This document shows, piece by piece, positions 3,389 through 40,282 of a stretch of DNA of 44,242 bases (position 1 is its first letter; each line of letters opens with the position of its first letter). The notes below the pieces were generated by a model that saw only the letters and a list, made by a program, of their open reading frames with translations, ran no database searches and was not told the origin of the DNA. This DNA comes from a candidate division WWE3 bacterium. GTDB lineage: Bacteria > Patescibacteriota > WWE3 > UBA101185 > UBA10185. The stretch is taken from positions 1 to 44,242 of the forward strand of contig CAMDGN010000002.1 in NCBI GenBank assembly GCA_945897985.1, given 5' to 3'. The translations under genes were made by a program, and so were the position numbers.

Positions 3389-4507
3389 ATGAAGATATCA
3401 ATAATTATTCCTACTTATAACGAAGAGGAAAACATCAAAACCCTGGTCCCTTTACTGGTTGCTAAATTTAAAGAATTTAAAAGTTATGATTTTTCCATAC
3501 TTTTTGTAGACGGTAATTCCAAAGATAAAACGGTAGTTGCAATAAAAAATTTCCAAAAAGAAATTAAAAATATATTTCTAATAGAAGAAGAGTCAAAAAC
3601 TGGTCTAGGAGGAGCTTATATTAAAGGTTACATCTATTCCATGAAAAAATTAAAAGCTGATTACGTTGTTGAAATGGATGCTGATCTGCAACATAGTCCC
3701 GATGACTTTCCAAAATTAATTTCCAAAATTAAAGAAGATTACGATTTAATTATTGGTTCCAGGTATGTTAAAGGGGGTTCTGTTCCTAAAGAGTGGGCAT
3801 TATATCGAAAATTTATTTCTTACTTTGGAAGTCTCTTTGCTAGAGTTTTGCTTAGAATTATGAAGGTAAAGGATTTTACTTCAGGATTTAGAGTAACCAA
3901 AGTTAAAGGAATTTTAGACCAGATTGATTTTACTCAAATCAAATCAAAAGGTTTTGCCTACAAGATGGATATGTTAGTTCGAATTTATGAAATGAAAGCA
4001 AGGATTGTGGAGGTTCCGATCGCGTTTGGGTTACGAGATAGGGGAACTTCCAAGATGGAGAAGAAAAACTTTAGAGATTCACTAGATGTTGTTTTATATT
4101 TTGCACTTCAGAGAAATAAAAATTTTATAAAATTCGTAATTGTTGGATTTGGTGGACTCTTTACCGATTTACTTATTTTTAACTTACTCTCTTTAAAGAT
4201 TGCTTCTTCGGCAGCTAGTTTAGTTTCAGGAATCTTCGCATTAACTTTTACATTCCTTATGAATAATTTTTGGTCCTTTAGCGAAAGACAAAAAAAGACT
4301 TTTAGAGAAATTATTCCAGTTTTTGTGATTTACGGAATTAGTTCTTATGTTCCGATTCTTTTAAGAAGTTACCTAATTCACTTTTTAGAATCTACCTATG
4401 GAGACACACTTGTTATTAGTAATATTGGTTTCTTAATCGGTGTTGTGTTTGGAATTGTTTGGAACTTTACAGTTTATAGTAAAATTATATGGAAGAAAAA
4501 ATCATGA
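3389..4507 (+). CDS. Polyprenyl-phosphate glycosyltransferase (GT2, Dpm1/GtrB/ArnC type) fused to a C-terminal GtrA-like membrane domain
   Basis: GT2 core motifs ISIIIPTYNEEENI, VEMDADLQHSPDD, GSRY. C-terminal 4-TM region FIKFVIVGFGGLFTDLLIFNLL...NNFWSF...WNFTVYSKIIW is typical of GtrA. Confidence 0.8.
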   Translation: MKISIIIPTYNEEENIKTLVPLLVAKFKEFKSYDFSILFVDGNSKDKTVVAIKNFQKEIKNIFLIEEESKTGLGGAYIKGYIYSMKKLKADYVVEMDADLQHSPDDFPKLISKIKEDYDLIIGSRYVKGGSVPKEWALYRKFISYFGSLFARVLLRIMKVKDFTSGFRVTKVKGILDQIDFTQIKSKGFAYKMDMLVRIYEMKARIVEVPIAFGLRDRGTSKMEKKNFRDSLDVVLYFALQRNKNFIKFVIVGFGGLFTDLLIFNLLSLKIASSAASLVSGIFALTFTFLMNNFWSFSERQKKTFREIIPVFVIYGISSYVPILLRSYLIHFLESTYGDTLVISNIGFLIGVVFGIVWNFTVYSKIIWKKKS

Positions 4508-5274
4508 AACAACATAAAGTCGACATTTCAATTGTTATACCTTGCTATAACGAAGAAGAGAGGATTATCTCTTCAATTAGCTCTGTTGTATCCTTTATGA
4601 ATTCCTTTAACCCATCGTTTGAGATTATAGTAGTTGATGATGGCTCAAAGGATAATTCTGTTACTTTATTAAAAAATTATATTTCAACTAGAGATAATAT
4701 TTATTTAATTGAAAATCCGCACAAAGGAAAAGGTTTTGCTGTTCGAACTGGCGTTTTGTTGTCAGAAGGTAAATATGTTTTGATGTCTGACGCGGATTTA
4801 GCAACACCAATTGATGAGATAAAAAGACTTCTAGTTTGGGTAGAAAATAATAACTATGATATCGCTATAGCTTCCAGAGAAGGCTTAGGTGCCTCAAGAT
4901 CCGATGAGCCTTTTATAAGACATTTAATGGGAAGAGTTTTTAACTTTTTAATTAAAATTCTTGTTGGGCTATTTTACAATGATACTCAATGCGGATTTAA
5001 GTTGATAAAAGGGGATGCAGCTAGGGATATTTTTAATAGAATGATTCTTTTCGGTGATGATGCACGAATTGTAAAATATCCAAAAGTAACTGCTTTTGAC
5101 GTTGAAGTTTTAGTAATTGCCAAAAATGACGGATTAAAAGTAAAAGAAGTTCCTGTTGCTTGGAGCTATATCCCAACTAAGCGTGTTTCAGCGATTCGAG
5201 ATTCAGTTTTAATGCTCATGGAAATTTTAAAAATAAGAATAAATGATTTATTTGGGAGATACAAAAAGAGATAG
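4504..5274 (+). CDS. GT2 glycosyltransferase, Alg5-like (candidate polyprenyl-phosphate beta-glucosyltransferase)
   Basis: ISIVIPCYNEEERI, VVDDGSKD, MSDADLATPIDE, ASREG, QCGFK. The track start is 4489, but ATG 4504 forms an ATGA overlap with the upstream stop and directly precedes the GT2 N-terminus. Confidence 0.7.
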   Translation: MKQHKVDISIVIPCYNEEERIISSISSVVSFMNSFNPSFEIIVVDDGSKDNSVTLLKNYISTRDNIYLIENPHKGKGFAVRTGVLLSEGKYVLMSDADLATPIDEIKRLLVWVENNNYDIAIASREGLGASRSDEPFIRHLMGRVFNFLIKILVGLFYNDTQCGFKLIKGDAARDIFNRMILFGDDARIVKYPKVTAFDVEVLVIAKNDGLKVKEVPVAWSYIPTKRVSAIRDSVLMLMEILKIRINDLFGRYKKR

Positions 5275-5286
5275 AAAGGTTTCAAT

Positions 5287-6579
5287 ATGAGAATTTGCGT
5301 AATTGGTACAGGTTATGTCGGTTTAGTTGGCTCTTCAGTTTTTGCAGACTGGGGTAATGAGGTAATTGGGGTTGATAATAATCCTGAAAAAATTAAGATG
5401 ATTGAGTCCGGAGTAATGCCTATTTTTGAACCAGGTTTAAGAGAGCTTGTTGCTAAAGGTATTTCTAGTGGTAATCTAAGATTTACTGATTCGTTAAAAG
5501 CAGGAATCAACGACGCTGAGATCATTTTTATATGCGTCGGTACACCTATGGGAGAGGACGGAAGTGCCGATTTAAAATACATTTATCAAGTTGCTGATGA
5601 GATAGCGCTTGAAATGAAAACACCTAAGATAATATCAATTAAAAGCACAGTTCCAGTTGGAACAAATAAAAAGATCAGAGAATATATTAAAAATAAAACC
5701 TCAGTAGAATTTGACTCGGTATCAGTCCCTGAATTTTTAAGAGAAGGTTCCTCAATTGAGGATATGAATCAAACCGATAGAACTGTGATTGGATCCAATA
5801 GCCCTGAAGCTATTGAGAAAGTCTCTAGGCTATTCGAACATTTAAATTCTCCTATTGTTAAATGTGACTTAGAGAGTGCGGAATTGATTAAATACGCTTC
5901 CAATTCCTTTCTAGCCACTAAAATTTCTTTTATTAACGAAATAGCTCAAATTTGCGATTTGAGTGGGGCTGATGTATCCAAGGTGGCTCAAGGTATGGGT
6001 TTGGACTCCCGAATTGGCCCTAAGTTTCTAAACGCTTCTATTGGGTATGGAGGTAGCTGTTTTCCTAAAGATGTCCAAGCTCTATACAAAACATCTAGTG
6101 ATTTAGGGTATCACTTTAATATATTAGAGAGTGTGATAAAGACTAATAAAGACCAAAAGCACTACTTTATTGAAAAAATTAAAAAAGTATACGGGGAGGG
6201 TCTTAAAGGAAAAACCGTCGCTTGCTTAGGCCTTGCCTTTAAAAATGATACCGACGATATTAGAGAATCCGTAGCAATTGAGGTCGTTCGAATTTTAAGA
6301 GATATGGGAGCTGAAATAAAAGCTTTCGATCCTGAAGCAATGCCAAATTCCAAAAAAGTACTTGGAGACTCCGGTATTACTTACTGCGCTACAAAAGAAG
6401 ATGCCGTAACGAACTCTGATTTTCTTGTGATTTTAACCGAATGGCGAGAATTTAAAGAACTCCAAGACTCAGTTCTAATTTCTGTTAAAGATAAAAATAT
6501 TTTTGATGGAAGAAACTTACTTGATAGAACTAAACTTGGTAATTTAGGAATTAATTATTATTGTATCGGTAAAAAATGA
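5287..6579 (+). CDS. ugd: UDP-glucose 6-dehydrogenase
   Basis: N-terminal Rossmann MRICVIGTGYVGLV, catalytic-Cys motif GYGGSCFPKD, 430 aa, C-terminal UDP-binding domain (GLAFKNDTDDIRES). AAAGG lies 7 nt upstream of the ATG, one of the few SD-like sites in the window. Confidence 0.9.
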   Translation: MRICVIGTGYVGLVGSSVFADWGNEVIGVDNNPEKIKMIESGVMPIFEPGLRELVAKGISSGNLRFTDSLKAGINDAEIIFICVGTPMGEDGSADLKYIYQVADEIALEMKTPKIISIKSTVPVGTNKKIREYIKNKTSVEFDSVSVPEFLREGSSIEDMNQTDRTVIGSNSPEAIEKVSRLFEHLNSPIVKCDLESAELIKYASNSFLATKISFINEIAQICDLSGADVSKVAQGMGLDSRIGPKFLNASIGYGGSCFPKDVQALYKTSSDLGYHFNILESVIKTNKDQKHYFIEKIKKVYGEGLKGKTVACLGLAFKNDTDDIRESVAIEVVRILRDMGAEIKAFDPEAMPNSKKVLGDSGITYCATKEDAVTNSDFLVILTEWREFKELQDSVLISVKDKNIFDGRNLLDRTKLGNLGINYYCIGKK

Positions 6580-8958: not shown

Positions 8959-10161
8959 ATGAGAATACTAAGGATTTTTTATGATTGGCCTGGAACTTGG
9001 AATGGTTTGGGTCCTTCAGGATACGAAATTACCAAAGAGCAACTCAATCAAGGTAATAAAATTACATTAATGTGCGGAAATTGGGCTAAAAATCCTCCTG
9101 TTTCTTTACCAAATTTAAATATCATCCCTATTTTTAGGGAACCCATTGAAGGCACTATTTACTTTACATCTTCCATACTTTTATTAATCAAATACTTACT
9201 CTGGAGAAATACATACAAGGTTGATGTAATCCATTCTCATGGTCACTTTGCGATTTGGATTTATCTATACAGGTTAATTTTTAAAAAAATGCTTTTTGCT
9301 AGGTTTGAATTTGAGCCTCTTTTTGTAACCCATTTTCACAACACTTTTGCGGGAAGATGGGATTCACTTAGAAAAGAGAATAAGCCAATTAAATGGTTTT
9401 CTGAAAAAATTGCATGGCCTTTGGGAGTTATGTCAGATAAGTGGGCAGTATCATCGAGTGACCTGTGTGTTTTTGTTTCTCAAAATCTTTTAGATGAGGC
9501 TGTTAAATTTTATGGCGCTGACTTATCCAAATGCGTAGTGTTAGAAAATGGTGTTAACACCGAGCTCTTTAAGAGAGTTAATAGCATTGAAAAGGATAAA
9601 ACTAGGAAAGAGTTGGGTTACGACTTATTTGACACAGTTATTATTAATTATGGCAACATGGTTGGTAGAAAAAATATTGTAAACTTGATTCAGTCCTTAA
9701 GTTATCTTCCTATTAAATATAAACTACTTCTGATAGGTTCTGGGCCAAAGGATTACAAGGATCAAATTGACAAAGTAATTATTGATAACTTATTAGGTTC
9801 AAGGGTTCGAAGAATCCCGTACACCCCTTATACCGATCTACCAATTCCAATCCAAAGTTCTGATATTTTTGTGCTGCCTTCAGATTTTGAGGGCTTGCCA
9901 AAAGTTGTACTTGAAGCTTTATCTTGCGAAATTCCTACCCTTGTATCAGGGTTCAAGTTTACCGATCATGTTGACGGGGTTTATTACTTAGAAAATAAAG
10001 ATCCAAAGACTATTGCGGCTCAAATACAAGAAATTTCCACATCTGAAGTAAAAATGGACATCGATGCTTTCAGGGCTAAGTTTTCCTGGAAAACCAAGAT
10101 GTTCGTGTTAAATAATTTATACCAGAGATTTATCAACGAAAAAAATGCTAAAAATAATTAA
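8959..10161 (+). CDS. GT4 glycosyltransferase
   Basis: PSDFEGLPKVVLEALSCEIPTLVS (EX7E); GT-B length and layout. Confidence 0.75.
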   Translation: MRILRIFYDWPGTWNGLGPSGYEITKEQLNQGNKITLMCGNWAKNPPVSLPNLNIIPIFREPIEGTIYFTSSILLLIKYLLWRNTYKVDVIHSHGHFAIWIYLYRLIFKKMLFARFEFEPLFVTHFHNTFAGRWDSLRKENKPIKWFSEKIAWPLGVMSDKWAVSSSDLCVFVSQNLLDEAVKFYGADLSKCVVLENGVNTELFKRVNSIEKDKTRKELGYDLFDTVIINYGNMVGRKNIVNLIQSLSYLPIKYKLLLIGSGPKDYKDQIDKVIIDNLLGSRVRRIPYTPYTDLPIPIQSSDIFVLPSDFEGLPKVVLEALSCEIPTLVSGFKFTDHVDGVYYLENKDPKTIAAQIQEISTSEVKMDIDAFRAKFSWKTKMFVLNNLYQRFINEKNAKNN

Positions 10162-11725
10162 TTTTTTAACTAAATATAAGTATATTATTTTTATAATTTT
10201 ATATCTTGTATTCAGAGTCGCTATTTTGAACATAAATTCAGCTGAATGGGGGGATAGTTACAGAATTTTACGAGCTACAGATTATTTAAAATCTTTTACC
10301 TACCCTTCCGATGAGAAAAGACCTCCGTTATTTTCGGCTCTATTACTTCTCAATCCTTTGAATGACGCAATAGCTGGATCTAGGGTAATAATGCTTTTAC
10401 TCTCGTTACTCATACTCACTTCTTTTTACTTTCTTCTAAAGCAAATTAATTTTAGCCTAACTGAAAACCAAAGATTTTTTTCAATGGTATTTTTAGCAAT
10501 CAATCCTTTATTTTTGTATTGGTCTATAAGAGTCTATGCTGATAGTTTGTTTTTACTTTTAATGCTTTTAAGTTTAAACATTTTCTACCTATACCAGAAA
10601 CATTTTTATCGTTTTCTGCTTCCAGCACTTTCCTTTATAGCAATACTCGCTGTCTTAACTAGGTTCGAAGGTTACATTCTTTTTGCTTGTGTATTTTTAG
10701 CGATCCTTTTAAGTGTTAAGAGGAAATTTGAGACATTATTTTATTTGATACCATTTATTTTCTTCCTTTTCTTGATAATTTATTTTCCTCAATACTCCTT
10801 TTATAAAAATCCTATTGGCTCAAGTTACGTTGACGAAGCTGTTGGAAGGGTAATCTCCCTTAGGGAAATATTTAATTTTGGATTGCAGTACCTGTTTTTA
10901 TTAGGAAATTTATATACTATTTATTTTCTAGCTTTTTCAAAAAATCTAATTCTTCGATTCTTTAAAGATAATCTAATTATTCTTTTCATTTTACTTGTTC
11001 ATTCAGCTCTATCTTTTGTTTGGTTTGCTGCCGTGCCTAGGTTATTTTTACCAATACTCCCATTTCTTTGTATTTTATTTGTTATAGGGTTTGAAACATT
11101 TTTTAATCTTACTTCTCGTATTTCAACCAGCGTTTATTTGAAAAATTTTTGGAGGAGAGAATATCTTCACTACCTAACCCCAGTTCTATTACTTATTACC
11201 TACGCTTTGGGCCAAGCCTACTTAAAATTACCTTTCCTATTAACTAATTTGGTCTATTTCTCTTTAATTCTGGTTTATTCGGCACTCTTGCTCTTGGTTA
11301 TTTTCTACCACTATAAAAAAGTGTTTATATTACTAGTTATAGTTTTTAACCTTGTTTGGGGATATATGTTTATTTCCCTTGAAAAAGATACATTAAAAGT
11401 ATTAAATACCGCTACTTTATTTTTTATTGACAATTACAGCCCTTCCGGAAATGTACTTACTAATGACATCTCCAGTATCACGAGATACTACCTAGGTGAC
11501 AAGCACTACCAAACCGGACTGTTAACCAAAGGAAGAGACTTATCTGATGTTATAAAGATGAATAACATTGAATATGTAATTGTTACCAACGAGCAAAATC
11601 CTGAGATGTCTTTCACACCCTCTAAACACCCATACCTGACAATCCTGAAAGAATTTAGGCAGGTAATTGGCGGTAAAGAGTTTTATACTTATATTGCTAG
11701 AGTTAACGTACCGCTGGTTAAATGA
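10145..11725 (+). CDS. GT-C-fold integral membrane glycosyltransferase (ArnT/PMT_2-like)
   Basis: 526 aa, at least 11 TM helices. The first loop has acidic residues and a PPL motif (NSAEWGDSYRILRA...EKRPPLFSALL) as in ArnT/PMT_2 enzymes. Soluble C-terminal tail of about 100 aa. Confidence 0.6.
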   Translation: MLKIINFLTKYKYIIFIILYLVFRVAILNINSAEWGDSYRILRATDYLKSFTYPSDEKRPPLFSALLLLNPLNDAIAGSRVIMLLLSLLILTSFYFLLKQINFSLTENQRFFSMVFLAINPLFLYWSIRVYADSLFLLLMLLSLNIFYLYQKHFYRFLLPALSFIAILAVLTRFEGYILFACVFLAILLSVKRKFETLFYLIPFIFFLFLIIYFPQYSFYKNPIGSSYVDEAVGRVISLREIFNFGLQYLFLLGNLYTIYFLAFSKNLILRFFKDNLIILFILLVHSALSFVWFAAVPRLFLPILPFLCILFVIGFETFFNLTSRISTSVYLKNFWRREYLHYLTPVLLLITYALGQAYLKLPFLLTNLVYFSLILVYSALLLLVIFYHYKKVFILLVIVFNLVWGYMFISLEKDTLKVLNTATLFFIDNYSPSGNVLTNDISSITRYYLGDKHYQTGLLTKGRDLSDVIKMNNIEYVIVTNEQNPEMSFTPSKHPYLTILKEFRQVIGGKEFYTYIARVNVPLVK

Positions 11726-11736: not shown

Positions 11737-12423
11737 ATGCTTTTATCTATTGTTATACCCGTTTATAACGAAAAAAATACTGTTTCAGATATTATTAAAA
11801 AGATAGATTCCCTTCCCACCAGTTTAAATAGAGAGTTAATTATAGTTGACGATGGTTCAACTGACGGAACTAGGGAAATCTTAAAATCCCTAGAAAGTCG
11901 AAGTGACGTTAAATTAATTTATAAGGAGTCAAATTCTGGAAAAGGGGATAGTTTAAAACTAGGATTTAAAAATTCAAAAGGGGATTATGTAATTGTTCAA
12001 GATGCTGATTTAGAGTATGAGCCTGAAGATTACTTTAAGCTTCTTGAGGCAATTGATGGGAAAGATAATACTATTATCTATGGTTCGAGATTTATGGGCC
12101 ATTATGAGGAAATGTCTCCTCTTCACTACTATGGCAATAAATTTTTAACTTCAATCACAAATATTCTATACGGTGTTGCGCTAAGTGATATGGAAACTTG
12201 TTACAAATTGTTTCCAGGCAATTTTATTAGGAGCTTAAATTTAAAGGCTAATCGATTTGATTTTGAACCTGAGATAACTGCTAAAGTTTTAAAATCTGGG
12301 TATAAAATAATTGAAGTACCTATTAGATATTATGGTAGAAAGCATTCCGAAGGTAAAAAGATTACTTGGAAAGACGGTTTTAATGCCATCTATTCCCTAG
12401 TTAAATACAAGTTCAATGACTAA
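11737..12423 (+). CDS. GT2 glycosyltransferase (soluble Dpm1-like core; candidate polyprenyl-phosphate-sugar synthase)
   Basis: LSIVIPVYNEKNTV, IVDDGSTDGT, VQDADLEYEPEDY, GSRF. 228 aa, no TM. Confidence 0.75.
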   Translation: MLLSIVIPVYNEKNTVSDIIKKIDSLPTSLNRELIIVDDGSTDGTREILKSLESRSDVKLIYKESNSGKGDSLKLGFKNSKGDYVIVQDADLEYEPEDYFKLLEAIDGKDNTIIYGSRFMGHYEEMSPLHYYGNKFLTSITNILYGVALSDMETCYKLFPGNFIRSLNLKANRFDFEPEITAKVLKSGYKIIEVPIRYYGRKHSEGKKITWKDGFNAIYSLVKYKFND

Positions 12424-25813: not shown

Positions 25814-26495
25814 TTCAAAAGATTTTTCTCAGGTTTATTATTCTGATCTTCTATCCGCTAAAAATATTTACAATAAAAATAAGTTAGTAACGATTGAAGA
25901 ATGCTTGAAACTTCTACCTGCAACCGGAAAGGTTCTAGATATAGGGTGTTTTAATGGGTTCTTTTTAGATATTATAAAAAATAAAGGTTATCAAACCTAC
26001 GGAATTGATGCCTCATCCGATGCAGTTAGTCTTTGTAATTCAAACGGTCACCATACAGTAGAAGCAAACTTAGAGGAAAAGATTCCTTTTGATGACAGTT
26101 TTTTTGATGCTATAACTGGTTTAGAAATTGTCGAGCATCTTGCTGACACCGATACCTTAATGAAAGAGATTAAAAGAGTATTAAAGCCAAACGGAATATT
26201 AATTTTTTCCACTCCAAATTTCTTTTCTTTAAGCAGAAGAATAATGACTTTGGTAGGAATTAATCCTTACTTTGAGGCTTCATTTAGTTTTCCTCCAAAA
26301 ATGGCGGGTCATCTTAGATTTTTCACTCATAACCTACTCAATGATTTTCTAAGCTACCATGATTTCAAAGTAAGATACACCGGCTCTGACGTTGTTAATT
26401 TTAATTCTAGTGGAACTTTATTTTCAACAAAGCTAGCTCAGTTGTTTCCTAAAATTGGACGGGGGATAGTTATTAGTGCTACAAATAGTAAATGA
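25806..26495 (+). CDS. Class I SAM-dependent methyltransferase
   Basis: Motif I VLDIGCFNGFF, FDAITGLEIVEHLAD, LKPNGILIFSTPN. 8-nt overlap with the radical SAM gene. Confidence 0.8.
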   Translation: MLNSKDFSQVYYSDLLSAKNIYNKNKLVTIEECLKLLPATGKVLDIGCFNGFFLDIIKNKGYQTYGIDASSDAVSLCNSNGHHTVEANLEEKIPFDDSFFDAITGLEIVEHLADTDTLMKEIKRVLKPNGILIFSTPNFFSLSRRIMTLVGINPYFEASFSFPPKMAGHLRFFTHNLLNDFLSYHDFKVRYTGSDVVNFNSSGTLFSTKLAQLFPKIGRGIVISATNSK

Positions 26496-30132: not shown

Positions 30133-30135
30133 ATT

Positions 30136-31260
30136 ATGAAGATTCTTCTTTGGACAAGGTCCGATTGTTTTAAAGCCAAAGGTGGGGATATGGTTCAGAT
30201 TGAAAATACCTTTGTGGAGTTAAAGAAGTTGGGAATTGATGTTGTTATATCCGACAAGAATAATGTTAATTTAGATGAATTTGATATTGTTCATCTTTTC
30301 CAACTAGATTGGACTCCTGAAACTTATCTTCATGCTAAAAGAGCTAAAGCTATGGGTAAGAAGATTATTATTTCCCCAATTCATCACAGCGTTGATGAGG
30401 TTAAGAAATTTGATAATGAATATGTTTTTGGACTCAGAAGAATTTCAAAATTACTATTTGTTGATCAATTTCAAAGAGATACATTTAAAAACATTTACAG
30501 ATCTATTTTGGATAGAAATAAGGCTCTACCAACTCTTTATTCAGTCTTAATTGGGCTAAAGGAGATGAATAAGAGGGTTCTTGCGTGGGCTGATGTTGTT
30601 TTAGTACAAACCAAACTTGAGGCTCAGGAGCTGAAAAATACCTATAATATTGATTTCAAATGGGAAGTTATACCAAACGGCGTGACATCCTTTTATACCG
30701 AAAAATCTAAATTAAAAAATCTATTTGATTTCGAAGACTATATTATTTGTGTGGGAAGAATTGAACCTAGAAAAAATAACCTCAACATTATTGCAGCAGT
30801 TAAGCAGATTAGGAAAGAATTAAATAAGGATATTAAACTTGTTTTTGTTGGAAAGAAATCCAATAAACACAGAGAATACACCGCCCTATTTGATATAGAA
30901 GTTGCTAAAAATGACTGGATTCATTTCAAAGATTATCTTTCGTATAGCTCAATGCCTGCAGTTTATAAATTTGCTAAAGTTTGTGTATCTGCATCTTGGT
31001 TTGAAACTACAGGTTTAACTCTACTAGAAGCTTTATTTATGGGAACCAACGCAGTTTCTTCTTCCCCAAGAGCTGAGGAAATTCTTGGTGAATTCTCTTC
31101 ATATTGTAAACCAGAGAGCGTTGAGTCTATTGCTTCGGCTATTAAAACAGAGTATTTTAGAACTAGACCTAAACTTCCATCCAGTTTTAAAGAAGAGTAT
31201 ACCTGGGAAAATACGGCTAAGAAGACCTCATTAATATATAAGGCTTTATTAAATGATTGA
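30136..31260 (+). CDS. GT4 glycosyltransferase
   Basis: GRIEPRKN; SWFETTGLTLLEALFMGTNAVSS (EX7E). Confidence 0.75.
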   Translation: MKILLWTRSDCFKAKGGDMVQIENTFVELKKLGIDVVISDKNNVNLDEFDIVHLFQLDWTPETYLHAKRAKAMGKKIIISPIHHSVDEVKKFDNEYVFGLRRISKLLFVDQFQRDTFKNIYRSILDRNKALPTLYSVLIGLKEMNKRVLAWADVVLVQTKLEAQELKNTYNIDFKWEVIPNGVTSFYTEKSKLKNLFDFEDYIICVGRIEPRKNNLNIIAAVKQIRKELNKDIKLVFVGKKSNKHREYTALFDIEVAKNDWIHFKDYLSYSSMPAVYKFAKVCVSASWFETTGLTLLEALFMGTNAVSSSPRAEEILGEFSSYCKPESVESIASAIKTEYFRTRPKLPSSFKEEYTWENTAKKTSLIYKALLND

Positions 31261-34117
31261 AATATTACTTATTGCAGGAATTTTAATATTAACTCTAATT
31301 CTACTAAGATATAATTTTTATGCTTCTTTAATTCTTGCTCTAGTTTTATCAACCTTTTTACATAAAGAATTATTTTCAATTTACATTTGGGATATGCTTC
31401 CGATTAGAATTTTTATGGGAGCTTTTTTAATAAATTCGTTTTATGATTTTGTAAGATTTAACGGAATTTCTTTCAAATTTGTAAAATATCTTAAAGACCC
31501 CTTTATCTTATTAAATGTTTTATTGCTGATTTCTAAATTAGTTTCAATGGTAAACACACTAAACCTAACTGCATCACTTTCCCTGAATGCTTTTAATATT
31601 GCTATTACTGTTTTTGTAATTACTATTTATTTAAAACTTGATGCTGATCAAATTTTAGGCCTCTTTAAGAGTTACATTCCTCTAGCTGCCATCTTATCCT
31701 TTATTACATTTGTTCAGTTATTTTTCTATTTTAAATATTCCTTTTTATTTGGCGCAATTTTGAATATTGCTGGAAATACTGTTGATTTCCCTGCCTTCAG
31801 CTTGTCTAAAGAATTCTTCAACGACTCCTTAAAGTTAGTTGTAATGACTAGGGTTGGTAGTATTTTTTGGGACGTAAATCACTTTGGAGGCTTCTTGGCT
31901 GGGTTAGTTGTTCCATTACTTGCACTAGTTCTTACATTGAAGAAGAACAGAAATTTAAATATATTTTATTTTTTTATCCTTAATCTAACTTTATTTTTAA
32001 CCAACTCCAGAAGTGCCTGGATTCTTGCAGGAATTGCCTATCTAATATTCTTTGTTTTCGCGGTTTACAAAAAAATAGGTAAAAAGGGAATCGCTTATTC
32101 TCTAATTGGGTTTGGGTTATTTAGTTTGTTGCTGTTTTTTATGTATCAAGATAAGGATTCTTATTTTAGAGAAAAAGTAAGATCCTATTTTCACTACAGA
32201 CTTGATTCCTTTGACTCTCACTTTCTACTTCTTCAAGGTACTGTTGAGGTTTTTAATAAATTTCCACTTATCGGCGGCGGTACTGGTAGTTTTTTTGAGC
32301 ATTTCAAAACCACACCTTCTTCAAACGATTTTTTACGAAGGGATCCCGCTGGATTAAGTGTTAGGGTTCCGGCACATTCCATATGGGGAGAATCGTTATC
32401 CGAAGCCGGGGCTGTTGGTACTTCTATATTTGTATTAATTGTTTTATTAAATCTAGGGTATCTTCTATACTCCATAATACACAGCAAGGATAACTCTGAT
32501 TTCCTTTTACTCTCTGCCTTTTTTGGAACCATCATCGGATGGTTGATCTCAGGAATTTTTTATTCCTTTAATTCTGAGTTTTTTTACATCTTATTTTTCT
32601 TTCCAGTTATGTACTCTATTAAGAAGAATAATTTGATTCTTGAAGAAGTTTTGCTCTATTTTAAAAAGAAATCCTTTTACGCAACCTTAATTCTTTTTTC
32701 AATTTGTTTTTATATGGTTTTTATAAATATTGGGGCCAATAAATTGATAGCTTTTGATGAGGCAATCTACGCTAAAGTTGCCAAAAACATGTTTGAAACT
32801 GGTGATTTAATGACATTGACCTGGAAAGCTTATGATATTAATTGGTTTGAGAAGCCTTCCCTTTATTTTATTTTAACTTCCTTTGCTTATTCTCTATTTG
32901 GGGTTTCTGAATTTGCAGCTAGATTTGTGACTGCTTGTTTCTCTATTGTATGTTTAGCGTATGTCTATAAGCTTGGAAAAGAGCTAAAAGACTCCGTGAC
33001 TGGGTACTTTTCAGTCCTAGCTATGATTCTAAATGTTTCTTATTTGTATTACTCAAGAACCGCAATGCTGGACGTGATTCTTACAGCGTTTATTACTGCT
33101 TCTGTTTTCTATTTCTTAAAGGCTCAAAAAGGTAATAAGCTTTTAAATCTATCACTTTCCGGTTCAATGGTCGGGCTTGCAGTTATGACAAAGAGTATAG
33201 TTGGATTTTTACCGCTTGGAATTTACTTTTTGTATTACATTTATACTCTTATTAAAAAAGAAAATACTTACTTAGTTGCACTAAAAGAGCTTTCTTTACT
33301 GACAGGTGTATCTCTTTTGGTCTGCGCTCCTTGGCATTTTTATATGTGGTACTTACACGGAAGTGATTTTATTAATTCTTATTTTGGCTACCACTTATTT
33401 AAGCGATACACTTCAGCAATCGAGGATAAAGGCGGGCCTTGGTATTATTACTTTGTTGTTATTAGAAATACAATGCGATTATGGTTTTTAGTTTTGATTC
33501 CTTCACTTGCATACTTCATTTATAAAGCTTACAAAGAGAAGTTTTCTAATGAAAAGATTTTAATACTTATTTCTGCAGTAATTGTGATGTTATTTTTCTC
33601 AACCTCCTCTTCTAAACTTAAGTGGTATATTATGCCCATTTATCCATTTTTAGCTATAATTTGCGGCTATTTTGTCTCAGAAGCCAAGGAACTTTTATTT
33701 AAGAAAACTAAGTCACTTGTTATAGCTTTTGTAGCATCTTACTTATTTATTGTTGCCAATATATTTTACTTCTATACTCAAAGAGATATGGTCTACACTG
33801 GAGATCTGACTGGCAGGATTGTTACCTTAATTCAAAAAAATAATGAGTTGCCAAAAAAGGAAGTTGAGTACTCTTACTTTGATAAAACTGATTACCCTGT
33901 AGCACTTTATTACTCTGAGAAACCTTTTGAATTAGCTGACTTTTCTCCTTTAAAACAACATTTAACTAATCTTAAAAAGGATAATAATGGGGTGATTATG
34001 ACCAATACTTTCGTAACCAGTCAGAGCAGGTTCAGATCATTAAAGAATACTTTTCCTGAACTAACAATTATTTCTGAAAACAAAGACTACGTCTTAGGGT
34101 CTTTGACAGTTTACTAA
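31253..34117 (+). CDS. Fusion protein: N-terminal O-antigen polymerase/ligase-like domain (Wzy_C/WaaL family) plus C-terminal ArnT/PMT_2-like GT-C glycosyltransferase
   Basis: N-half (aa 1 to about 460): polytopic, LTNSRSAWILAGIAYLIFF, loop GGGTGSFFEHF...VPAHSIWGESLSEAGAVG (Wzy_C-type H..W/Y..L.E.G..G, His codon 32375-77). C-half (aa about 470-954): LIAFDEAIYAKVAKNMFETGDLMTLTW...WFEKPSLYF (Asp-Glu codons 32756-61), SRTAMLDVILT, MTKSIVGFLPLGIY. One uninterrupted 954-codon frame. Confidence 0.7.
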   Translation: MIEILLIAGILILTLILLRYNFYASLILALVLSTFLHKELFSIYIWDMLPIRIFMGAFLINSFYDFVRFNGISFKFVKYLKDPFILLNVLLLISKLVSMVNTLNLTASLSLNAFNIAITVFVITIYLKLDADQILGLFKSYIPLAAILSFITFVQLFFYFKYSFLFGAILNIAGNTVDFPAFSLSKEFFNDSLKLVVMTRVGSIFWDVNHFGGFLAGLVVPLLALVLTLKKNRNLNIFYFFILNLTLFLTNSRSAWILAGIAYLIFFVFAVYKKIGKKGIAYSLIGFGLFSLLLFFMYQDKDSYFREKVRSYFHYRLDSFDSHFLLLQGTVEVFNKFPLIGGGTGSFFEHFKTTPSSNDFLRRDPAGLSVRVPAHSIWGESLSEAGAVGTSIFVLIVLLNLGYLLYSIIHSKDNSDFLLLSAFFGTIIGWLISGIFYSFNSEFFYILFFFPVMYSIKKNNLILEEVLLYFKKKSFYATLILFSICFYMVFINIGANKLIAFDEAIYAKVAKNMFETGDLMTLTWKAYDINWFEKPSLYFILTSFAYSLFGVSEFAARFVTACFSIVCLAYVYKLGKELKDSVTGYFSVLAMILNVSYLYYSRTAMLDVILTAFITASVFYFLKAQKGNKLLNLSLSGSMVGLAVMTKSIVGFLPLGIYFLYYIYTLIKKENTYLVALKELSLLTGVSLLVCAPWHFYMWYLHGSDFINSYFGYHLFKRYTSAIEDKGGPWYYYFVVIRNTMRLWFLVLIPSLAYFIYKAYKEKFSNEKILILISAVIVMLFFSTSSSKLKWYIMPIYPFLAIICGYFVSEAKELLFKKTKSLVIAFVASYLFIVANIFYFYTQRDMVYTGDLTGRIVTLIQKNNELPKKEVEYSYFDKTDYPVALYYSEKPFELADFSPLKQHLTNLKKDNNGVIMTNTFVTSQSRFRSLKNTFPELTIISENKDYVLGSLTVY

Positions 34118-34139: not shown

Positions 34140-35333
34140 TTATCTTTGAGATTTATTTAAAATATAAAGAAATGTTACAGCAGTAAGTATTATTGAAGAA
34201 ATTAAATCAGCTGCAGCTAAGCCTGTAATCCCGAAATTTATAGTTAGGAAGAGGCTTAAAATAACGAAGAGAACTAATTTTCCTAGTGTAAAGCTAAGTA
34301 AAGTCTTAGATTTTTCTTCGATAAAGAAGTAGTTATCAAGGAATTTATGGATTGAAGAAAAGGCCTGAGCAAAAAGTAAGATTGAGAATATTAAGATAGA
34401 CTCATTAAATTTATCACCAAAAAATAAATTAAAAAAGAATGGTGAAATTAGGGACCCGATTGTAGCGAGAATAAGAACAAAAATTCCTAATATTAAAGAT
34501 TCCTTTAAATTGTAACTTAAATCATCCCTTTTTCTTTTTGCATTAGAAGTCAGTATTACTGTGTAAATGGAGTAAGAGACTACTGAAAATACATTTGAAA
34601 GTTTTGAAGCAAGGGAGAAGGTCCCAAGGTCACTTAAAGTACTAATTATTTTTAGGATTTGGTTTGAAATCGTATTCCAGCTTTCGTTTATGGTTTGACT
34701 AATACCAGCCAAAAAGAATCTAGATAAGAATTTATTAATTTTAAAGTTCAACTTAAATGTCTTTAATTCGTTTAATTTAAGGGGTAGCAATATTATTGAT
34801 GCTCCTATAGATAACGAAAAGATTTGAAAAGCTGTTTCAAGGTTAACATTGAAATGGTTGGTTAGGATTAAAGCTCCAAAAATACCTTTGATTAAAGCTG
34901 GGAAGAAGTTTAAAAGCGAGGCCAAGACAAATCTCTCATCCTTTTGGAATAAAGCAAACAGAAGGTAGTTGATACCGTAGAAAAATAACCCAAGGATAAA
35001 ATTAGTAAAAATCGAAAGGTTTTCGATTTCATTTAGGTAGTAAAGGATTAATATTGAAAGAAAAGCTGTAAAAACAAAGGCTACAATTTTAAAATTTATG
35101 AGTTCATTTAAATAGCTTTTACCTTTTCCGATATACTCTGATACAAAAGTTGAGTTTGATCCAAAATCGATAATTTTAGAAATTGAAACTAATAGGAGAG
35201 TAAGTAAGCTATAAATTCCAAATTCTTCCTTTGGAAGTTTGATAGCAACAGCTAAGAAGAGTAAAACACCTAAACCTAGGTTAATTAGGTTAGTGAGGGA
35301 TACTAGTGAGATGTTTTTAGCTGATTGCTTCAT
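34140..35333 (-). CDS. MOP-superfamily polysaccharide flippase (Wzx-like), third copy, the only minus-strand gene in the locus
   Basis: 397 aa, about 12 TM. N-terminus NISLVSLTNLINLGLGVLLFLAVAIKLPKEEFGIYSL. Confidence 0.6.
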   Translation of the reverse strand: MKQSAKNISLVSLTNLINLGLGVLLFLAVAIKLPKEEFGIYSLLTLLLVSISKIIDFGSNSTFVSEYIGKGKSYLNELINFKIVAFVFTAFLSILILYYLNEIENLSIFTNFILGLFFYGINYLLFALFQKDERFVLASLLNFFPALIKGIFGALILTNHFNVNLETAFQIFSLSIGASIILLPLKLNELKTFKLNFKINKFLSRFFLAGISQTINESWNTISNQILKIISTLSDLGTFSLASKLSNVFSVVSYSIYTVILTSNAKRKRDDLSYNLKESLILGIFVLILATIGSLISPFFFNLFFGDKFNESILIFSILLFAQAFSSIHKFLDNYFFIEEKSKTLLSFTLGKLVLFVILSLFLTINFGITGLAAADLISSIILTAVTFLYILNKSQR

Positions 35334-37573: not shown

Positions 37574-37600
37574 AAAGAGTGTAAAATCATTATCAATACA

Positions 37601-38230
37601 ATGTTTGAATTTACTAAACGATTTATAGACATAATCGGATCCCTTATTGGGATATTAATCTTTATAATCCCGATGGCTTTAATAGCTTTATACATTAAAA
37701 TTGCTTCCCCCGGAGACTCTGTTATCGCAAATACCAAAGGTAGGGTTGGGTATAAGGGTAAAGAGTTTAAATTACTAAAGTTTAGATCAATGATTCCTAA
37801 TGCTCAGGCTTGGTTAGAATCTCAACCTGAATTATTCAATAAATACAAAGAAAATAATTTTAAACTCGATCCAGACCCAAGACTAATTCCCGGAGGTAAA
37901 TTTATTAGAAAATTTTCTTTAGACGAATTGCCTCAATTTTTTAATATCTTAAACGGGGATATGAGTCTAGTTGGGCCTAGAGCTTATTTCAAATTTGAAT
38001 TAGAAGAGCAATTAAAAAAATATCCTCAAACCAAGGCTGATATATTACAGATGCAGGAAGCAAAACCCGGACTAACTGGAGTTTGGCAAACCAGTGGAAG
38101 GTCAAGTATTGGGTTTGTTGAAAGGATAAAGATGGACGCAGATTACTCTAGAAAGCGTTCTCTGCTTTATGATATATTAATTATATTGAAGACACCATTA
38201 GTAGTTATATTCGGAAAAGGAGCTTACTAG
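37601..38230 (+). CDS. Initiating polyprenyl-phosphate phosphoglycosyltransferase (small monotopic 'bacterial sugar transferase', PglC/WbaP C-domain type)
   Basis: KRFIDIIGSLIGILIFIIPMALIALYIKIASPG (re-entrant helix), LLKFRSM, SLDELPQFFNILNGDMSLVGPRA (Asp-Glu dyad), PGLTGVWQ, DADY. Confidence 0.85.
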   Translation: MFEFTKRFIDIIGSLIGILIFIIPMALIALYIKIASPGDSVIANTKGRVGYKGKEFKLLKFRSMIPNAQAWLESQPELFNKYKENNFKLDPDPRLIPGGKFIRKFSLDELPQFFNILNGDMSLVGPRAYFKFELEEQLKKYPQTKADILQMQEAKPGLTGVWQTSGRSSIGFVERIKMDADYSRKRSLLYDILIILKTPLVVIFGKGAY

Positions 38231-38233
38231 TTT

Positions 38234-40282
38234 ATGGATAAAGATAAAAGTATAAAGTTTGGAGGTAATTCTGAATCAGAAAATTTTAAAAATAAATTTA
38301 CTGAGAAGTTAGAATCTAAAGCTGCTCAAATTAAAGAAAAATTTAATTTAAATAGTTCTAACAATAAAATGAATATTGGATCAAATATGGGAAAAGTAGT
38401 TTCATCTGGAAATTTAAATAAAGTTACAAAAATTTTAGTCCCTGTTTTTGGGGGTATTCTTGTTGTATTGGTTCTGTTATTTTTTGTAGTAATAAATCCT
38501 ATTCTAAGTTTAAGAGACTCCGTTACTAAATTACAGAAGACAGTTAACCAAACAAGTTTTTCTCTAATTAATGATAGAGATCTTGTAGCTTACGAATCTA
38601 ACTTAGCAAAACTTGAAAGTGATTTGAACAACTTAAGATCTGAAAGAGACAGCAAAATTGGCCACTTAAAGAATTTTCCTTATATAAAGAACTTCTACGG
38701 TGATATTGATATCTTCATTAACACAGGAATCAAGCTTGTCGCTGCAGGAAAAGAAGTTAGACCTGTAATTGAGCCTTTTGCAGATGCTATGGGAATTAAA
38801 GTTTCCAAAGACCAGCAAGTAAATAAGATTGGATTTGCGGATGCTGTTGCAACCTGGATTAGTGTAATGCCAAAAGTTGCTCAAAATCTTGATCCAATCA
38901 TTCTTAAACTTGATGAAGCTGGAAAAGAGTTAAATAAGATTGATGCTCAGAAGTACAATTTTAATTTTGGCTTTTATAAAAACGATTTAAGACCTGGAAT
39001 TTTATTTGCTCAAAAATCTTTAGCTGACGTACGAACCTATGGTCCTGATGCCAAAGAGGCTCTTCTAATTTTCCCTGGAATTTTAGGAGTAGGTACAGGT
39101 GAGCAAAGATATATGATTATTATGCAGAATAATGCTGAAATCAGAGCAACTGGTGGTTTCTGGACTAACTTTGCAACCTTCAAGGTTAAAAACGCACTTT
39201 TAACATCTGATTTTACGTCTAAAGACATGTATTCAATTGATATTGCTCTTGACGCTGTTGATAAGTACGTAACATTTCCGACTGCTCCCGCAGCTTATAA
39301 CAAGTTCTTAAAAGTCGAGAGATTGTACGCAAGAGATACCAATATTTCTCCTGATTTCCCGTCTGCTATTACTCAGTTTAATGTTTACTACAACATGGCT
39401 CAAAGAGTTAATCCAGTTGATTTCAAGCCGGTAGATGGTTATATCGGAATTAACACCGAGGTTGTTAAAGAATTTATCGGAATCACAGGTCCTGTAAATG
39501 TTAATGGTGTAATTTTTGACAAGAATAACGTTGTTCTTGAGCTTGAAAAAATTGCCTCACTCTCCTTAGCTCAACAAGCAAATAGAAAGAAAGTTTTAGG
39601 GGACTTAATGGAAGCTATGCTTAAAAATGTGTTTGAATCTGATTCCTTCTTATGGCCACAACTTATCAACAAAGGTGTTGATTTGATGAATAGAAAACAG
39701 GTTATAATTTACTTTAACGACGTAAATTCGCAAAAACTTGTTGAAAAATATAACTACGGTGGAAGAATTGTTGAACAAACCCCAGGAAGTGACTATGCTT
39801 TCTTCGTTTCAACCAACCTTGGTGGTGATAAAACTAACTTGTTTATTAAGAAAGAGCTTACTCAGACAACAACCCAGGAGAATGGTAAGTTGCTTCGAAC
39901 TGTCAAAGTTAGATATACCTACCCGCAACCACCTTCTGAGTACAACGACTTTGTGAAGAGATACCAAGACTGGTATAGACTTTATGTTCCTGAGGATGCT
40001 GAATTTGTATCACTTACAGGAAATGAAGACAGTACTTTATTCCAAGGTAAAGAAAGAGGTAAAGTTTATTTTGGAGGATTTATGACATTAGTACCTAACG
40101 AAACTAAAGAAGTTGAATTCAAGTATTATCTTCCTGCATCTTATGTTAAGAATAAGCAATACAACTTATACATTCAAAAGCAATCCGGTGTTAACGAAGA
40201 AAAATACAACTTTAATGTTTTCGGTACAACTTCAACTAAGGTAATTGATACTGATTACAACTTAAATGTTACTTCTAACTAA
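38234..40282 (+). CDS. DUF4012-family protein: N-terminal membrane anchor, coiled coil, large extracytoplasmic domain; function unknown
   Basis: 682 aa. Lys/Asn-rich N-terminus, one TM (ILVPVFGGILVVLVLLFFVVI), coiled coil (aa about 95-140), then YMIIMQNNAEIRATGGFWTNFATF, which I recognise as the DUF4012 signature (QNNAE.R.TGGF). Confidence 0.7.
   Translation: MDKDKSIKFGGNSESENFKNKFTEKLESKAAQIKEKFNLNSSNNKMNIGSNMGKVVSSGNLNKVTKILVPVFGGILVVLVLLFFVVINPILSLRDSVTKLQKTVNQTSFSLINDRDLVAYESNLAKLESDLNNLRSERDSKIGHLKNFPYIKNFYGDIDIFINTGIKLVAAGKEVRPVIEPFADAMGIKVSKDQQVNKIGFADAVATWISVMPKVAQNLDPIILKLDEAGKELNKIDAQKYNFNFGFYKNDLRPGILFAQKSLADVRTYGPDAKEALLIFPGILGVGTGEQRYMIIMQNNAEIRATGGFWTNFATFKVKNALLTSDFTSKDMYSIDIALDAVDKYVTFPTAPAAYNKFLKVERLYARDTNISPDFPSAITQFNVYYNMAQRVNPVDFKPVDGYIGINTEVVKEFIGITGPVNVNGVIFDKNNVVLELEKIASLSLAQQANRKKVLGDLMEAMLKNVFESDSFLWPQLINKGVDLMNRKQVIIYFNDVNSQKLVEKYNYGGRIVEQTPGSDYAFFVSTNLGGDKTNLFIKKELTQTTTQENGKLLRTVKVRYTYPQPPSEYNDFVKRYQDWYRLYVPEDAEFVSLTGNEDSTLFQGKERGKVYFGGFMTLVPNETKEVEFKYYLPASYVKNKQYNLYIQKQSGVNEEKYNFNVFGTTSTKVIDTDYNLNVTSN

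Follow-up and report, generated by a model that had tools for sequence, protein, structure and literature searches.

A conserved candidate locus for envelope-glycan assembly in candidate division WWE3 bacteria that combines undecaprenyl-diphosphate pathway genes with multiple GT-C glycosyltransferases

We analyzed a 44.2-kb stretch of DNA (the window; 44,242 nucleotides of contig CAMDGN010000002.1, assembly GCA_945897985.1) from a candidate division WWE3 bacterium, an organism that has not been cultivated and has a tiny genome, and studied the glycan locus that spans positions 3389 to 40282. The results indicated that this is probably a lineage-typical WWE3 envelope-glycan locus, in which an undecaprenyl-diphosphate (Und-PP) pathway is combined with units for multi-component transmembrane glycosylation. 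The evidence came from the gene content, the folds of the polytopic glycosyltransferases (GTs) of the GT-C type, the homology of two GT2 enzymes to synthases of lipid-linked sugar donors, and a gene order that was conserved across WWE3. From these data, we infer the substrates of the enzymes, the division of labor among them, and the service of the modules to one product. A first-pass annotation of the sequence had proposed that a lipid-linked glycan is made by a phosphoglycosyl transferase (PGT) and GT4 enzymes, flipped, and then elaborated by GT-C enzymes, and this general logic agreed with the families, folds, and donor synthases that we found. Genes are named below by their start positions in the window.

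Gene content and GT-C candidates

The locus was described in the first-pass annotation as almost unidirectional and about 37 kb long, and the map of open reading frames (ORFs) bore this out. Specifically, 29 ORFs filled positions 3389 to 40282, and all of them were on the forward strand save the one at 34140 to 35333. The gene junctions were mostly overlapping or shorter than 35 bp, and the largest gap was no more than 80 bp.

Six polytopic proteins were GT-C candidates: the products of 10145, 12416 (DUF2079), 16867, 18426, and 26492, and the C-terminal half of the 31253 product. Five of the six were verified as GT-C enzymes by family or fold, three of them (16867, 18426, and the 31253 C-half) by the Pfam cut-offs for PMT/PMT_2 and two (10145 and 26492) by AlphaFold models. 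The 16867 and 18426 products were 30% identical to one another. In the case of 10145, 26492, and the flippase candidate 20017, no Pfam match was found, even with the threshold relaxed to E<=10, and NCBIfam was of no use either, as 26492 alone weakly matched an LA_3751-family putative GT. Sequence and profile searches of PDB found no match for 10145, 26492, or their family profiles.

Homologues of 10145 (30 to 50% identity) carried PF13231 (PMT_2) or PF02366 (PMT) and were named ArnT-family or GT39 proteins. The AlphaFold2 model of 10145, built from a 39-sequence alignment, had a predicted local distance difference test (pLDDT) score of 90.5 and a predicted template-modeling (pTM) score of 0.90. 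When this model was compared to PDB with Foldseek, it matched ArnT (5f15/5ezm, TM-score 0.56 to 0.57), STT3/AglB/PglB, ALG9, AftD, and Emb, all at a probability of 1.00, and nothing but GT-Cs rose above noise. The 26492 model (pLDDT 84.5) matched ALG12, PglB, PimE, ALG9, AftA, and AftB. A profile of two PMT_2 paralogues aligned with the 10145 family over its full length in hhalign at 98.2% probability, and the 26492 profile aligned with the 10145 family at 92%. Relatives of 26492 in WWE3 genomes were many at 45 to 48% identity, and a few of them touched PMT_2. Both families had invariant acidic residues directly after the first transmembrane (TM) helix. In the predicted first outside loop of the 10145 family, these were D37 and E57, with D56 almost invariant; in the first loop of the 26492 family, the residue was D36.

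Because 10145 and 26492 had no Pfam match, no NCBIfam match above cut-off, and no PDB sequence match of their own, it might be argued that they are transporters and that the GT-C count is inflated. However, the confident models matched GT-C proteins alone at a probability of 1.00, the MATE, MurJ, and MFS transporters scored no higher than 0.11 against either model, and the homologues carried PMT_2. The fold search and the hhalign comparison with PMT_2 paralogues thus refuted a transporter identity, which we regard as extremely improbable.

The sixth candidate was the DUF2079 protein encoded by 12416, and for this protein the first-pass assignment to the GT-Cs was not verified. DUF2079 is a family that we take to belong to the GT-C superfamily clan, but hhalign did not confirm this placement (14 to 38% probability when compared with the profiles of the other GT-Cs). 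The protein had no PDB match in sequence and profile searches, and literature searches on DUF2079 returned nothing.

The C-half of the 31253 product is part of a Wzy_C::GT39 fusion. It scored 58.1 bits against PF02366 (cut-off 22.7), carried D502-E503 as a PMT domain with the DE motif, and matched ArnT (5ezm) over residues 480 to 810 at 6.5e-27; no MIR domain was matched. Full-length fusions (at least 850 aa, 35 to 53% identity) were found in 49 WWE3 loci, and Wzy_C was present in all 41 of the N-halves tested. H375, G386, and G389 of the Wzy_C half were conserved across the full-length fusions, and D502-E503 were found in at least 95% of 50 fusions. We also searched 1.84 billion representative proteins with the fusion, which gave 315 matches at E<=1e-30, and examined the best 150 of the 315 (all at E<=1.1e-35). 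Roughly 30 full-length fusions were found among these 150, near the top of the list, and the matches below about 1e-65 were almost all stand-alone GT39-like proteins or fragments. This ranking indicated that the fusion architecture is lineage-restricted. Literature searches on the candidate phyla radiation (CPR) together with O-antigen ligase returned nothing. The Wzy_C family includes WaaL ligases, O-oligosaccharyltransferases (O-OTases), and true polymerases.

As the first-pass annotation had proposed, Pfam identified five GT2 genes, namely 3389 (a fusion to GtrA), 4489, 11737, 21293 (or 21251), and 22096. The 3389 product matched the Pyrococcus furiosus dolichol-phosphate-mannose synthase (DPMS; 5mlz) over residues 1 to 356, which cover the catalytic and membrane domains (1.6e-39). 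The PDB matches that followed were ArnC and GtrB (sll0501), and the best NCBIfam match was PgfS. The 11737 product matched AglJ (6.7e-32), the catalytic domain of 5mlz (1.1e-21), and then ArnC and GtrB. These two proteins are predicted polyprenyl-phosphate sugar synthases, and because they match DPMS and ArnC, the locus appears to encode lipid-phosphate sugar donors for its GT-Cs. The best NCBIfam matches of 4489 and 21293 were ArnC, PgfS, or PpgS, far under the curated cut-offs. Since a GtrA domain, a UPF0104 protein, and three MOP proteins stand in the locus beside the DPMS/ArnC-type GT2s, every kind of component known from multi-component transmembrane glycosylation is represented, and in several copies.

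Ten GT4 genes had been claimed initially, although the accompanying list held nine, and nine was also the number of Glycos_transf_1/GT4 genes found with Pfam: 6576, 7790, 8959, 23081, 27836 (weak), 29029, 30136, 35368, and 36455 (or 36407). The matches of the GT4 proteins included a weak one to IagA/BgsA, a GT for the glycolipid anchor of lipoteichoic acid (LTA). Pfam also matched further proteins that had been proposed, namely the PglC-type PGT, Ugd, the radical SAM and methyltransferase pair, and the DUF4012 protein. The 37601 PGT matched the C-terminal domain of EPS_sugtrans/WbaP (1e-64), and Ugd (5287) scored 449 bits against the NDP-sugar dehydrogenase model TIGR03026 (cut-off 190). The radical SAM and methyltransferase pair is predicted to tailor sugars, so that methylated or otherwise modified sugars would be expected. 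DUF4012 is a CPR-enriched family that is also enriched in Gram-positive bacteria, Cyanobacteria, and Chloroflexi (Méheust et al.).

The locus contained four kinds of flippase candidate. The proposed three MOP proteins, UPF0104 protein, GtrA domain, and Wzy_C-type domain were all recovered with Pfam, in the case of 20017 through its homologues, for which the JGI name is O-antigen/teichoic acid export protein. The sole antisense gene, 34140, is separated from the forward-strand genes on its two sides by spacers of 22 and 34 bp. A 34140-type MOP gene came after the fusion in 33 of 46 loci and was antisense in nearly all of the loci that carried it. This conserved placement implies an internal divergent/convergent promoter arrangement within the core of the locus.

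Table 1. Coordinates of features in the window and the evidence for each
Feature	Position	Strand	Evidence or remark
CAP/YkwD-family membrane protein	2250..3137	+	Pfam CAP 6.7e-20; NCBIfam YkwD and DalA-like, both below cut-offs
Sigma-70-like promoter match	3335..3363	+	TTGTCA-17-TATAAT, 11/12 positions; top site in 1-20000; consensus match only
GT2 fused to 4-TM GtrA/DPMS domain; predicted polyprenyl-phosphate sugar synthase	3389..4507	+	Pfam GT2 and GtrA_DPMS_TM (49.7 bits)
Soluble GT2 (ArnC/PgfS-like)	4489..5274	+	Pfam GT2 4.6e-28; best NCBIfam ArnC 1.4e-19, below cut-off
UDP-glucose 6-dehydrogenase (Ugd/TuaD-like)	5287..6579	+	All three UDPG_MGDP_dh domains; TuaD 2e-150
Three GT4 glycosyltransferases	6576-7790, 7790-8956, 8959-10161	+	Pfam Glycos_transf_1 and Glyco_transf_4
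Divergent GT39/PMT_2-type GT-C glycosyltransferase	10145..11725	+	Homologues, AlphaFold2 fold, hhalign; no own Pfam match
Small GT2, candidate DPMS/AglJ-type polyprenyl-phosphate sugar synthase	11737..12423	+	Overlaps start of 12416 (DUF2079) gene
DUF2079 polytopic membrane protein, candidate GT-C	12416..14506	+	Pfam DUF2079 110.9 bits; about 8 or more TM segments
MOP/Wzx-type flippase 1	14503..15978	+	Polysacc_synt_3 and Polysacc_synt
UPF0104/LPG_synthase_TM flippase-like protein	15978..16877	+	Pfam 2.1e-42; TIGR00374 64.6 bits, cut-off 43
Two tandem PMT_2 GT-C glycosyltransferases	16867-18345, 18426-20027	+	PMT_2 44.7 and 43.1 bits, cut-off 26.1
MOP/Wzx-type flippase 2	20017..21324	+	No own Pfam match; homologues at about 50% identity carry PF13440/PF01943
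GT2	21293..22096	+	Pfam GT2; NCBIfam PgfS/ArnC-like; start agrees with gene call in 88% relative
GT2 with C-terminal TM segments	22096..23103	+	Pfam GT2; NCBIfam MftF/EpsD-like; TM prediction
GT4 glycosyltransferase	23081..24187	+	Glycos_transf_1 4.8e-18
B12-binding radical SAM enzyme (HpnJ-like)	24200 (start)	+	Pfam; HpnJ 5.5e-47, below cut-off
Class I SAM methyltransferase	25806 (start); pair with radical SAM enzyme 24200..26495	+	Pfam
WWE3-conserved GT-C family; first core gene	26492..27817	+	AlphaFold2 fold; no own Pfam match
Three core GT4 genes (27836 TuaH-like, 29029, 30136)	27836..31260	+	Pfam; 27836 TuaH 3.7e-30
954-aa fusion: Wzy_C N-half and GT39/ArnT-like GT-C C-half	31253..34117	+	Pfam Wzy_C (239-394), PMT/PMT_2 (480-694)
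MOP/Wzx-type flippase 3, sole antisense gene	34140..35333	-	Polysacc_synt 1.5e-12
Two core GT4 genes	35368-36477, 36455-37573	+	Pfam; orthologues after flippase in many WWE3 loci
Small monotopic PGT, 209 aa, PglC-type size, Bac_transf domain only	37601..38230	+	Bac_transf 1.7e-52, 178 bits
DUF4012 protein, one N-terminal TM segment; last core gene	38234..40282	+	DUF4012 64.3 bits

Conservation of the locus across WWE3

The homologues that carried names were from candidate division WWE3 (Katanobacteria) or the "Patescibacteria group." To compare loci, one genome per species was scanned with the 26492 family, which yielded 77 loci whose ORFs were classified against the window proteins. Most of the loci were titled WWE3 or Patescibacteria group, and many others were titled "uncultured Candidatus Saccharibacteria." The latter title was observed for L004, L008, L009, L017, and about 25 further loci that contained the WWE3-type core (GT-C, three GT4s, and the fusion). 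Because of this WWE3-type content, the Saccharibacteria titles look like a labeling problem of metagenome-assembled genomes.

The conserved core corresponds to positions 26492 to 40282 (14 kb) and consists of the GT-C gene, 27836, 29029, 30136, the Wzy_C::GT39 fusion, the antisense MOP gene, one or two GT4 genes, the PGT gene, and the DUF4012 gene. The first five core genes were in order in 47 of the 51 loci with enough sequence, at 35 to 53% identity, and the PGT and DUF4012 genes closed the core in L010, L028, L035, L039, L043, and L059.

The conserved order extended beyond the core. In a relative with 88% identity, the DNA was collinear from the flanking histidine kinase gene through 21 kb. 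In RIFOXYC1_FULL_40_10, a curated 897-kb genome, the locus was about 58 kb, and the proteins were 34 to 48% identical and in the same order, which was compared on either side of a 15-kb interval. The left part of this locus contained genes for CAP, GT2::GtrA, GT2, Ugd, three GT4s, PMT_2, a 228-aa GT2, DUF2079, MOP, UPF0104, three PMT_2 proteins, and MOP; the right part contained genes for a PMT_2 protein, a ferredoxin, a B12 radical SAM enzyme, and large orphan membrane proteins, followed by the same core. A GT4 trio of the 6576-10161 type preceded a GT-C gene in RIFOXYC1, L073, and L077 also. Since collinearity was found in both the 88% relative and a distant WWE3 genome, the locus is not an assembly artifact.

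The middle segment was variable and contained methyltransferases, radical SAM enzymes, extra GT2s, and extra GT-Cs. Methyltransferases and radical SAM enzymes recurred in this zone in other WWE3 loci, and in L033, the left module directly abutted the core. In the variable zone of RIFOXYC1 (L083:2078-9982), the ferredoxin gene was beside the B12 radical SAM gene, and there were three large proteins (765 aa; DUF6311, 549 aa; 676 aa), two of which had no Pfam match.

Thus, the locus is lineage-wide in WWE3 and has a conserved core. Our literature searches found no published description of it, and the WWE3-wide ordered super-locus, the Wzy_C::GT39 fusion, and the two GT-C families without Pfam coverage appear to be undescribed in the literature searched.

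Flanking genes and the neighboring LCP ligase

The left flank of the locus consisted of an S-adenosylmethionine decarboxylase gene and the CAP/YkwD gene. The CAP-family gene was directly upstream of the GT2::GtrA gene in the window, in the 88% relative, and in RIFOXYC1_FULL_40_10, and it may belong to the glycan locus. DalA, one of the families that it resembled, is a divisome-associated lipoprotein. The decarboxylase gene (1778-2185, reverse strand; polyamine synthesis) adjoined the locus and was the same neighbor in the 88% relative. Beyond it, positions 961 to 1767 (reverse strand) encoded a 268-aa orphan protein with six TM segments and no Pfam or NCBIfam match. In both L046 and L057, a gene for a homologue of this protein directly precedes the 26492-type GT-C gene, a placement that hints at some functional connection with the glycan locus.

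The right flank contained genes for RecO, a class II aminoacyl-tRNA synthetase, MraZ, RsmH, and an FtsL-like protein. A contig that was 99.7% identical to window positions 38248 to 44242 extended this context downstream, where the order was FtsI (penicillin-binding protein dimer and transpeptidase domains), UPF0102, an antisense LCP gene, a response regulator and histidine kinase, and PPDK. The LCP ligase scored 103 bits against TIGR00350 (cut-off 62), and its gene lay about 2 kb outside the window, some 5.9 kb downstream of the DUF4012 gene. The first-pass statement that no LCP ligase was seen was therefore correct for the window but not for its immediate surroundings. The presence of FtsI indicated that the organism has at least a division transpeptidase; among the CPR genomes described in 2013, WWE3 was the one in which no complete peptidoglycan pathway could be identified (Kantor 2013, PMC3812714). 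The dcw cluster is truncated in this lineage. At L078:5859-8987 (about 1.9 to 5.0 kb past the 3' end of the window), mraZ, rsmH, and ftsL were followed by ftsI, without the usual mur, mraY, or ftsW genes next.

Composition and signals of the window were also examined. The GC content was flat (0.30 to 0.34) in the cluster and flanks alike, which gave no compositional support to a reading of the locus as a horizontal island. Paralogues inside the window were at most 32% identical in pairwise comparisons, and recent duplication was rejected on this basis. An Rfam scan of the window found no RNA family. Terminator-like sites were not enriched and promoter-like sites were rarer than in shuffled sequences, and these sites say little, apart from the promoter-like site at 3335-3363, which is in the 251-bp gap ahead of the first locus gene. 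Pfam matches to GT4-conflict (defense-system) families were below cut-off save a marginal one on 23081, and we read them as ordinary GT4 cross-matches.

Assembly scheme, alternatives, and comparison with known systems

In the scheme that we propose, the small PGT of the core would prime the undecaprenyl lipid carrier, the five core GT4s would extend the oligosaccharide at the cytoplasmic face, and the antisense MOP flippase (34140) would export the Und-PP-oligosaccharide. The Wzy_C half of the fusion would then either polymerize the oligosaccharide or ligate it en bloc to an acceptor, and the DUF4012 protein may act as an auxiliary envelope protein. The DPMS/ArnC-type GT2s (3389 and 11737, and probably 4489 and 21293) would load single sugars onto undecaprenyl phosphate (Und-P). 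These Und-P-sugars may be extended by the GT4 trio at 6576-10161, as in the lactococcal polysaccharide pellicle (PSP) pathway (PMC10821137), and the GtrA domain, the UPF0104 protein, and the two further MOP proteins would flip Und-P carriers. At the outer face, the six GT-Cs (10145, DUF2079, 16867, 18426, 26492, and the GT39 half of the fusion) would add sugars to the glycan. The radical SAM and methyltransferase pair would tailor sugars, and Ugd would supply UDP-glucuronate for glucuronate or a derivative in the product, which would probably be anionic for this reason. In support of this scheme, the lactococcal PSP pathway shows a GT2 initiator, cytoplasmic GTs, a Wzx flippase, and GT-C transfer together, and the genes of the WWE3 locus are tightly packed, with no surplus of terminator-like sites. 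A wall-associated heteropolysaccharide that is attached to peptidoglycan by the neighboring LCP ligase is the end-point that we tentatively favor, with chances that we judge to be somewhat below even. It is quite unlikely, in our estimate, that the fusion is a bifunctional enzyme that performs en bloc Und-PP-oligosaccharide transfer and Und-P single-sugar addition on one acceptor and that, with five GT-Cs, builds the principal Katanobacteria envelope glycoconjugate (whether an S-layer or pilus that carries glycans or a main polymer of the wall).

Several observations weighed against this scheme. A profile search of the Wzy_C half against PDB found no solved relative that would distinguish a polymerase from a ligase. 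All NCBIfam equivalog matches were far below the curated cut-offs, so no sugar specificity could be read from them, and the DUF2079 protein had the low hhalign probabilities noted above. As the first-pass annotation had reported, Pfam found no Wzz/polysaccharide co-polymerase (PCP) protein, ABC exporter, or nucleotide-sugar gene beyond Ugd in the window; Ugd was thus the sole sugar-activation gene there, and no window ORF matched a Wzz/PCP chain-length regulator family. The LCP gene was on the opposite strand, 5.9 kb off, and beside division genes, and none of the 77 other loci showed an LCP gene within 10 kb of the core. The left and right halves of the locus were parted by the variable segment and could serve different products.

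The acceptor of the glycan might be protein rather than the cell wall. In this case, the Wzy_C half would be a PglL/PilO/WsfB-type O-OTase that acts on S-layer, pilin, or other surface proteins, and the GT39/PMT_2 enzymes would attach single sugars either to Ser/Thr residues or to the glycan itself, in the manner of the actinobacterial PMT or streptococcal Pgf/GtrB systems. O-OTases are part of the Wzy_C family, but so are true polymerases. The invariant H375, G386, and G389 have a ligase-like H-x10-G-x2-G spacing, but most orthologues have H-T, not H-[NSQ]. The PMT/PMT_2 matches, the PgfS match of 3389, and the lack of a chain-length regulator among the window ORFs also favored protein O-glycosylation, whereas no MIR domain was matched and no candidate acceptor protein gene was present in the window and flanks examined. 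Glycoproteins or a glycosylated S-layer were suggested for WWE3 in 2013 (PMC3812714), and streptococcal GtrB/GT-C protein glycosylation is documented (PMC12041528). On balance, we place protein O-glycosylation second to the wall-associated end-point and consider it somewhat unlikely. Another possibility is that the locus is a mosaic, with two or three independent glycan clusters side by side and no common product (for example, a core wall polymer locus and an exopolysaccharide [EPS] or decoration locus). Such a mosaic could explain why the locus has three MOP flippases as well as several possible initiators (one PGT and the DPMS-like GT2s). The segment from the left module to the core varied by genome (methyltransferases, radical SAM enzymes, extra GT-Cs, and large orphan proteins), and of the 47 loci whose core was ordered, 46 showed no left module within 10 kb; L033, which had a shortened core, was the exception. 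However, the left module, variable zone, and core kept their order and strand at 34 to 48% identity from the CAP-family gene on, the modules abutted directly in L033, and the gaps inside the locus never exceeded 80 bp. A mosaic is unlikely in light of these findings.

Finally, the glycan could be membrane-anchored, with ArnT-like enzymes that decorate a lipid head group, as in lipomannan/lipoarabinomannan (LM/LAM) assembly or lipid A modification. ArnT was the best structural or sequence match of 10145 and the fusion C-half, PimE, AftA/B, and Emb were among the fold matches, and a GT4 protein weakly matched IagA/BgsA. In contrast, the ArnT equivalog score was 98.5 bits against a cut-off of 567, the fold matches were generic to GT-C, ArnA/B/D and genes specific for decaprenyl-phosphoryl arabinose (DPA) or Ppm were not found, and CPR genomes lack lipid A synthesis (PMC3812714). 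Lipoglycan or glycolipid assembly is therefore very unlikely.

CPR bacteria (Patescibacteria) make up a large share of bacterial diversity and live attached to other cells. The locus described here accounts for roughly 4 to 6% of genomes of 0.7 to 0.9 Mb. Its gene order was kept across deep WWE3 divergence, which suggests that it probably makes a central surface structure, and such a structure would probably bear on envelope integrity, host attachment, or phage recognition. Concrete candidates also emerged from the analysis, namely a pair of DPMS-like donor synthases, two GT-C families that Pfam does not cover, and a lineage-restricted ligase/polymerase-GT39 fusion.

How does the locus compare with known systems? 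The first-pass annotation had placed it closer to mycobacterial lipoglycan assembly and had stated that no characterized pathway maps onto it; neither view held. Mycobacterial LM/LAM and arabinogalactan pathways (PimE, Mpt, Emb, and Aft) share with it the many outer-face GT-Cs that use polyprenyl-phosphate sugars. However, the matches to PimE, AftA/B/D, and Emb were at the fold level only, with no sequence-level relation. There were no Emb/Aft-type, DPA, or Ppm-specific features beyond the GT-C fold, and the window had no DPA pathway, Ppm1-type, or phosphatidylinositol mannoside genes. The organism is a CPR bacterium, and its PGT, MOP, and Wzy_C genes are those expected of Wzx/Wzy logic. Membership in a mycobacterial pathway was rejected, as partner genes were missing and the GT-C fold alone was shared. 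The Arn pathway was rejected as well (ArnT 98.5 bits versus 567, ArnC no more than 70 versus 529, and no ArnA/B/D domains).

The inventory fits Gram-positive Wzx/Wzy clusters together with multi-component transmembrane glycosylation (PMC10821137, PMC8035078, and PMC5412050). Gram-positive Wzx/Wzy capsular polysaccharide (CPS)/EPS and tua clusters likewise have a PGT, a set of GT4s and GT2s, a MOP flippase, a Wzy_C protein, and a UDP-glucose dehydrogenase, and the eps cluster of Bifidobacterium longum 105-A has adjacent PGT and DUF4012 genes, as in the WWE3 locus (PMC5412050). In contrast to these clusters, the WWE3 locus lacks Wzz/TuaF and a tyrosine kinase, its Wzy_C domain is fused to GT39, and it has GT-C enzymes, which are absent from CPS/EPS and tua clusters. 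With respect to tuaABCDEFGH, Ugd, 27836, 14503, and several GT4s resemble TuaD, TuaH, TuaB, and TuaC. A Tua operon was rejected because the scores were below cut-off (TuaD 502 versus 700, TuaH 105 versus 550, TuaC no more than 75 versus 550, and TuaB 36 versus 580) and the order differs; NCBIfam found no TuaE or TuaF match among the window proteins.

Three-component systems (GtrA/GtrB/GtrC, ArnC/ArnEF/ArnT, and CsbB/GtcA/YfhO; PMC8035078, PMC5836110, and PMC11127046) have in common with the WWE3 locus a DPMS/ArnC/GtrB-like GT2, a GtrA-type flippase (fused to the GT2 in WWE3), and a GT-C transferase, and overlapping WWE3 pairs such as 11737/12416 resemble coupled units. The WWE3 units differ in that they are multiplied (four or five GT2s and six candidate GT-Cs) and embedded with a full Und-PP pathway, and their GT-Cs are GT39-like or unclassified, not YfhO or GtrC. 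The lactococcal and streptococcal rhamnose cell-wall polysaccharide (Rha-CWPS) systems (rhamnan and PSP; GacI-L; PMC10821137 and PMC9574508) share a large locus for a cell-wall glycan whose decoration varies, a GT2 that loads Und-P, cytoplasmic GTs that extend the product, a Wzx-type flippase that exports it, and GT-C polymerization or transfer outside. In these systems an LCP ligase anchors the polymer, as the neighboring LCP protein may do in WWE3. Unlike Rha-CWPS loci, the WWE3 window has no dTDP-rhamnose genes, RgpCD-type ABC exporter, or recognized GacJ/WpsB-type activator, and no orthologue-level protein similarity was found. The candidate WWE3 backbone would be PGT/Und-PP based, with a Wzy_C domain, and there are six candidate GT-Cs in the WWE3 locus compared to two or three in the Rha-CWPS systems.

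The fusion and the scale of the locus are new, and the mechanism class is known from Gram-positive bacteria. Because of this, and because it was noted as early as 2013 that WWE3 is unusually rich in glycosyltransferases (PMC3812714), we view the locus as a useful extension rather than a surprise. By analogy, its closest functional counterparts would be the multi-component glycosylation systems of Gram-positive bacteria, together with the Rha-CWPS/PSP loci (PMC8035078, PMC10821137, and PMC11127046).

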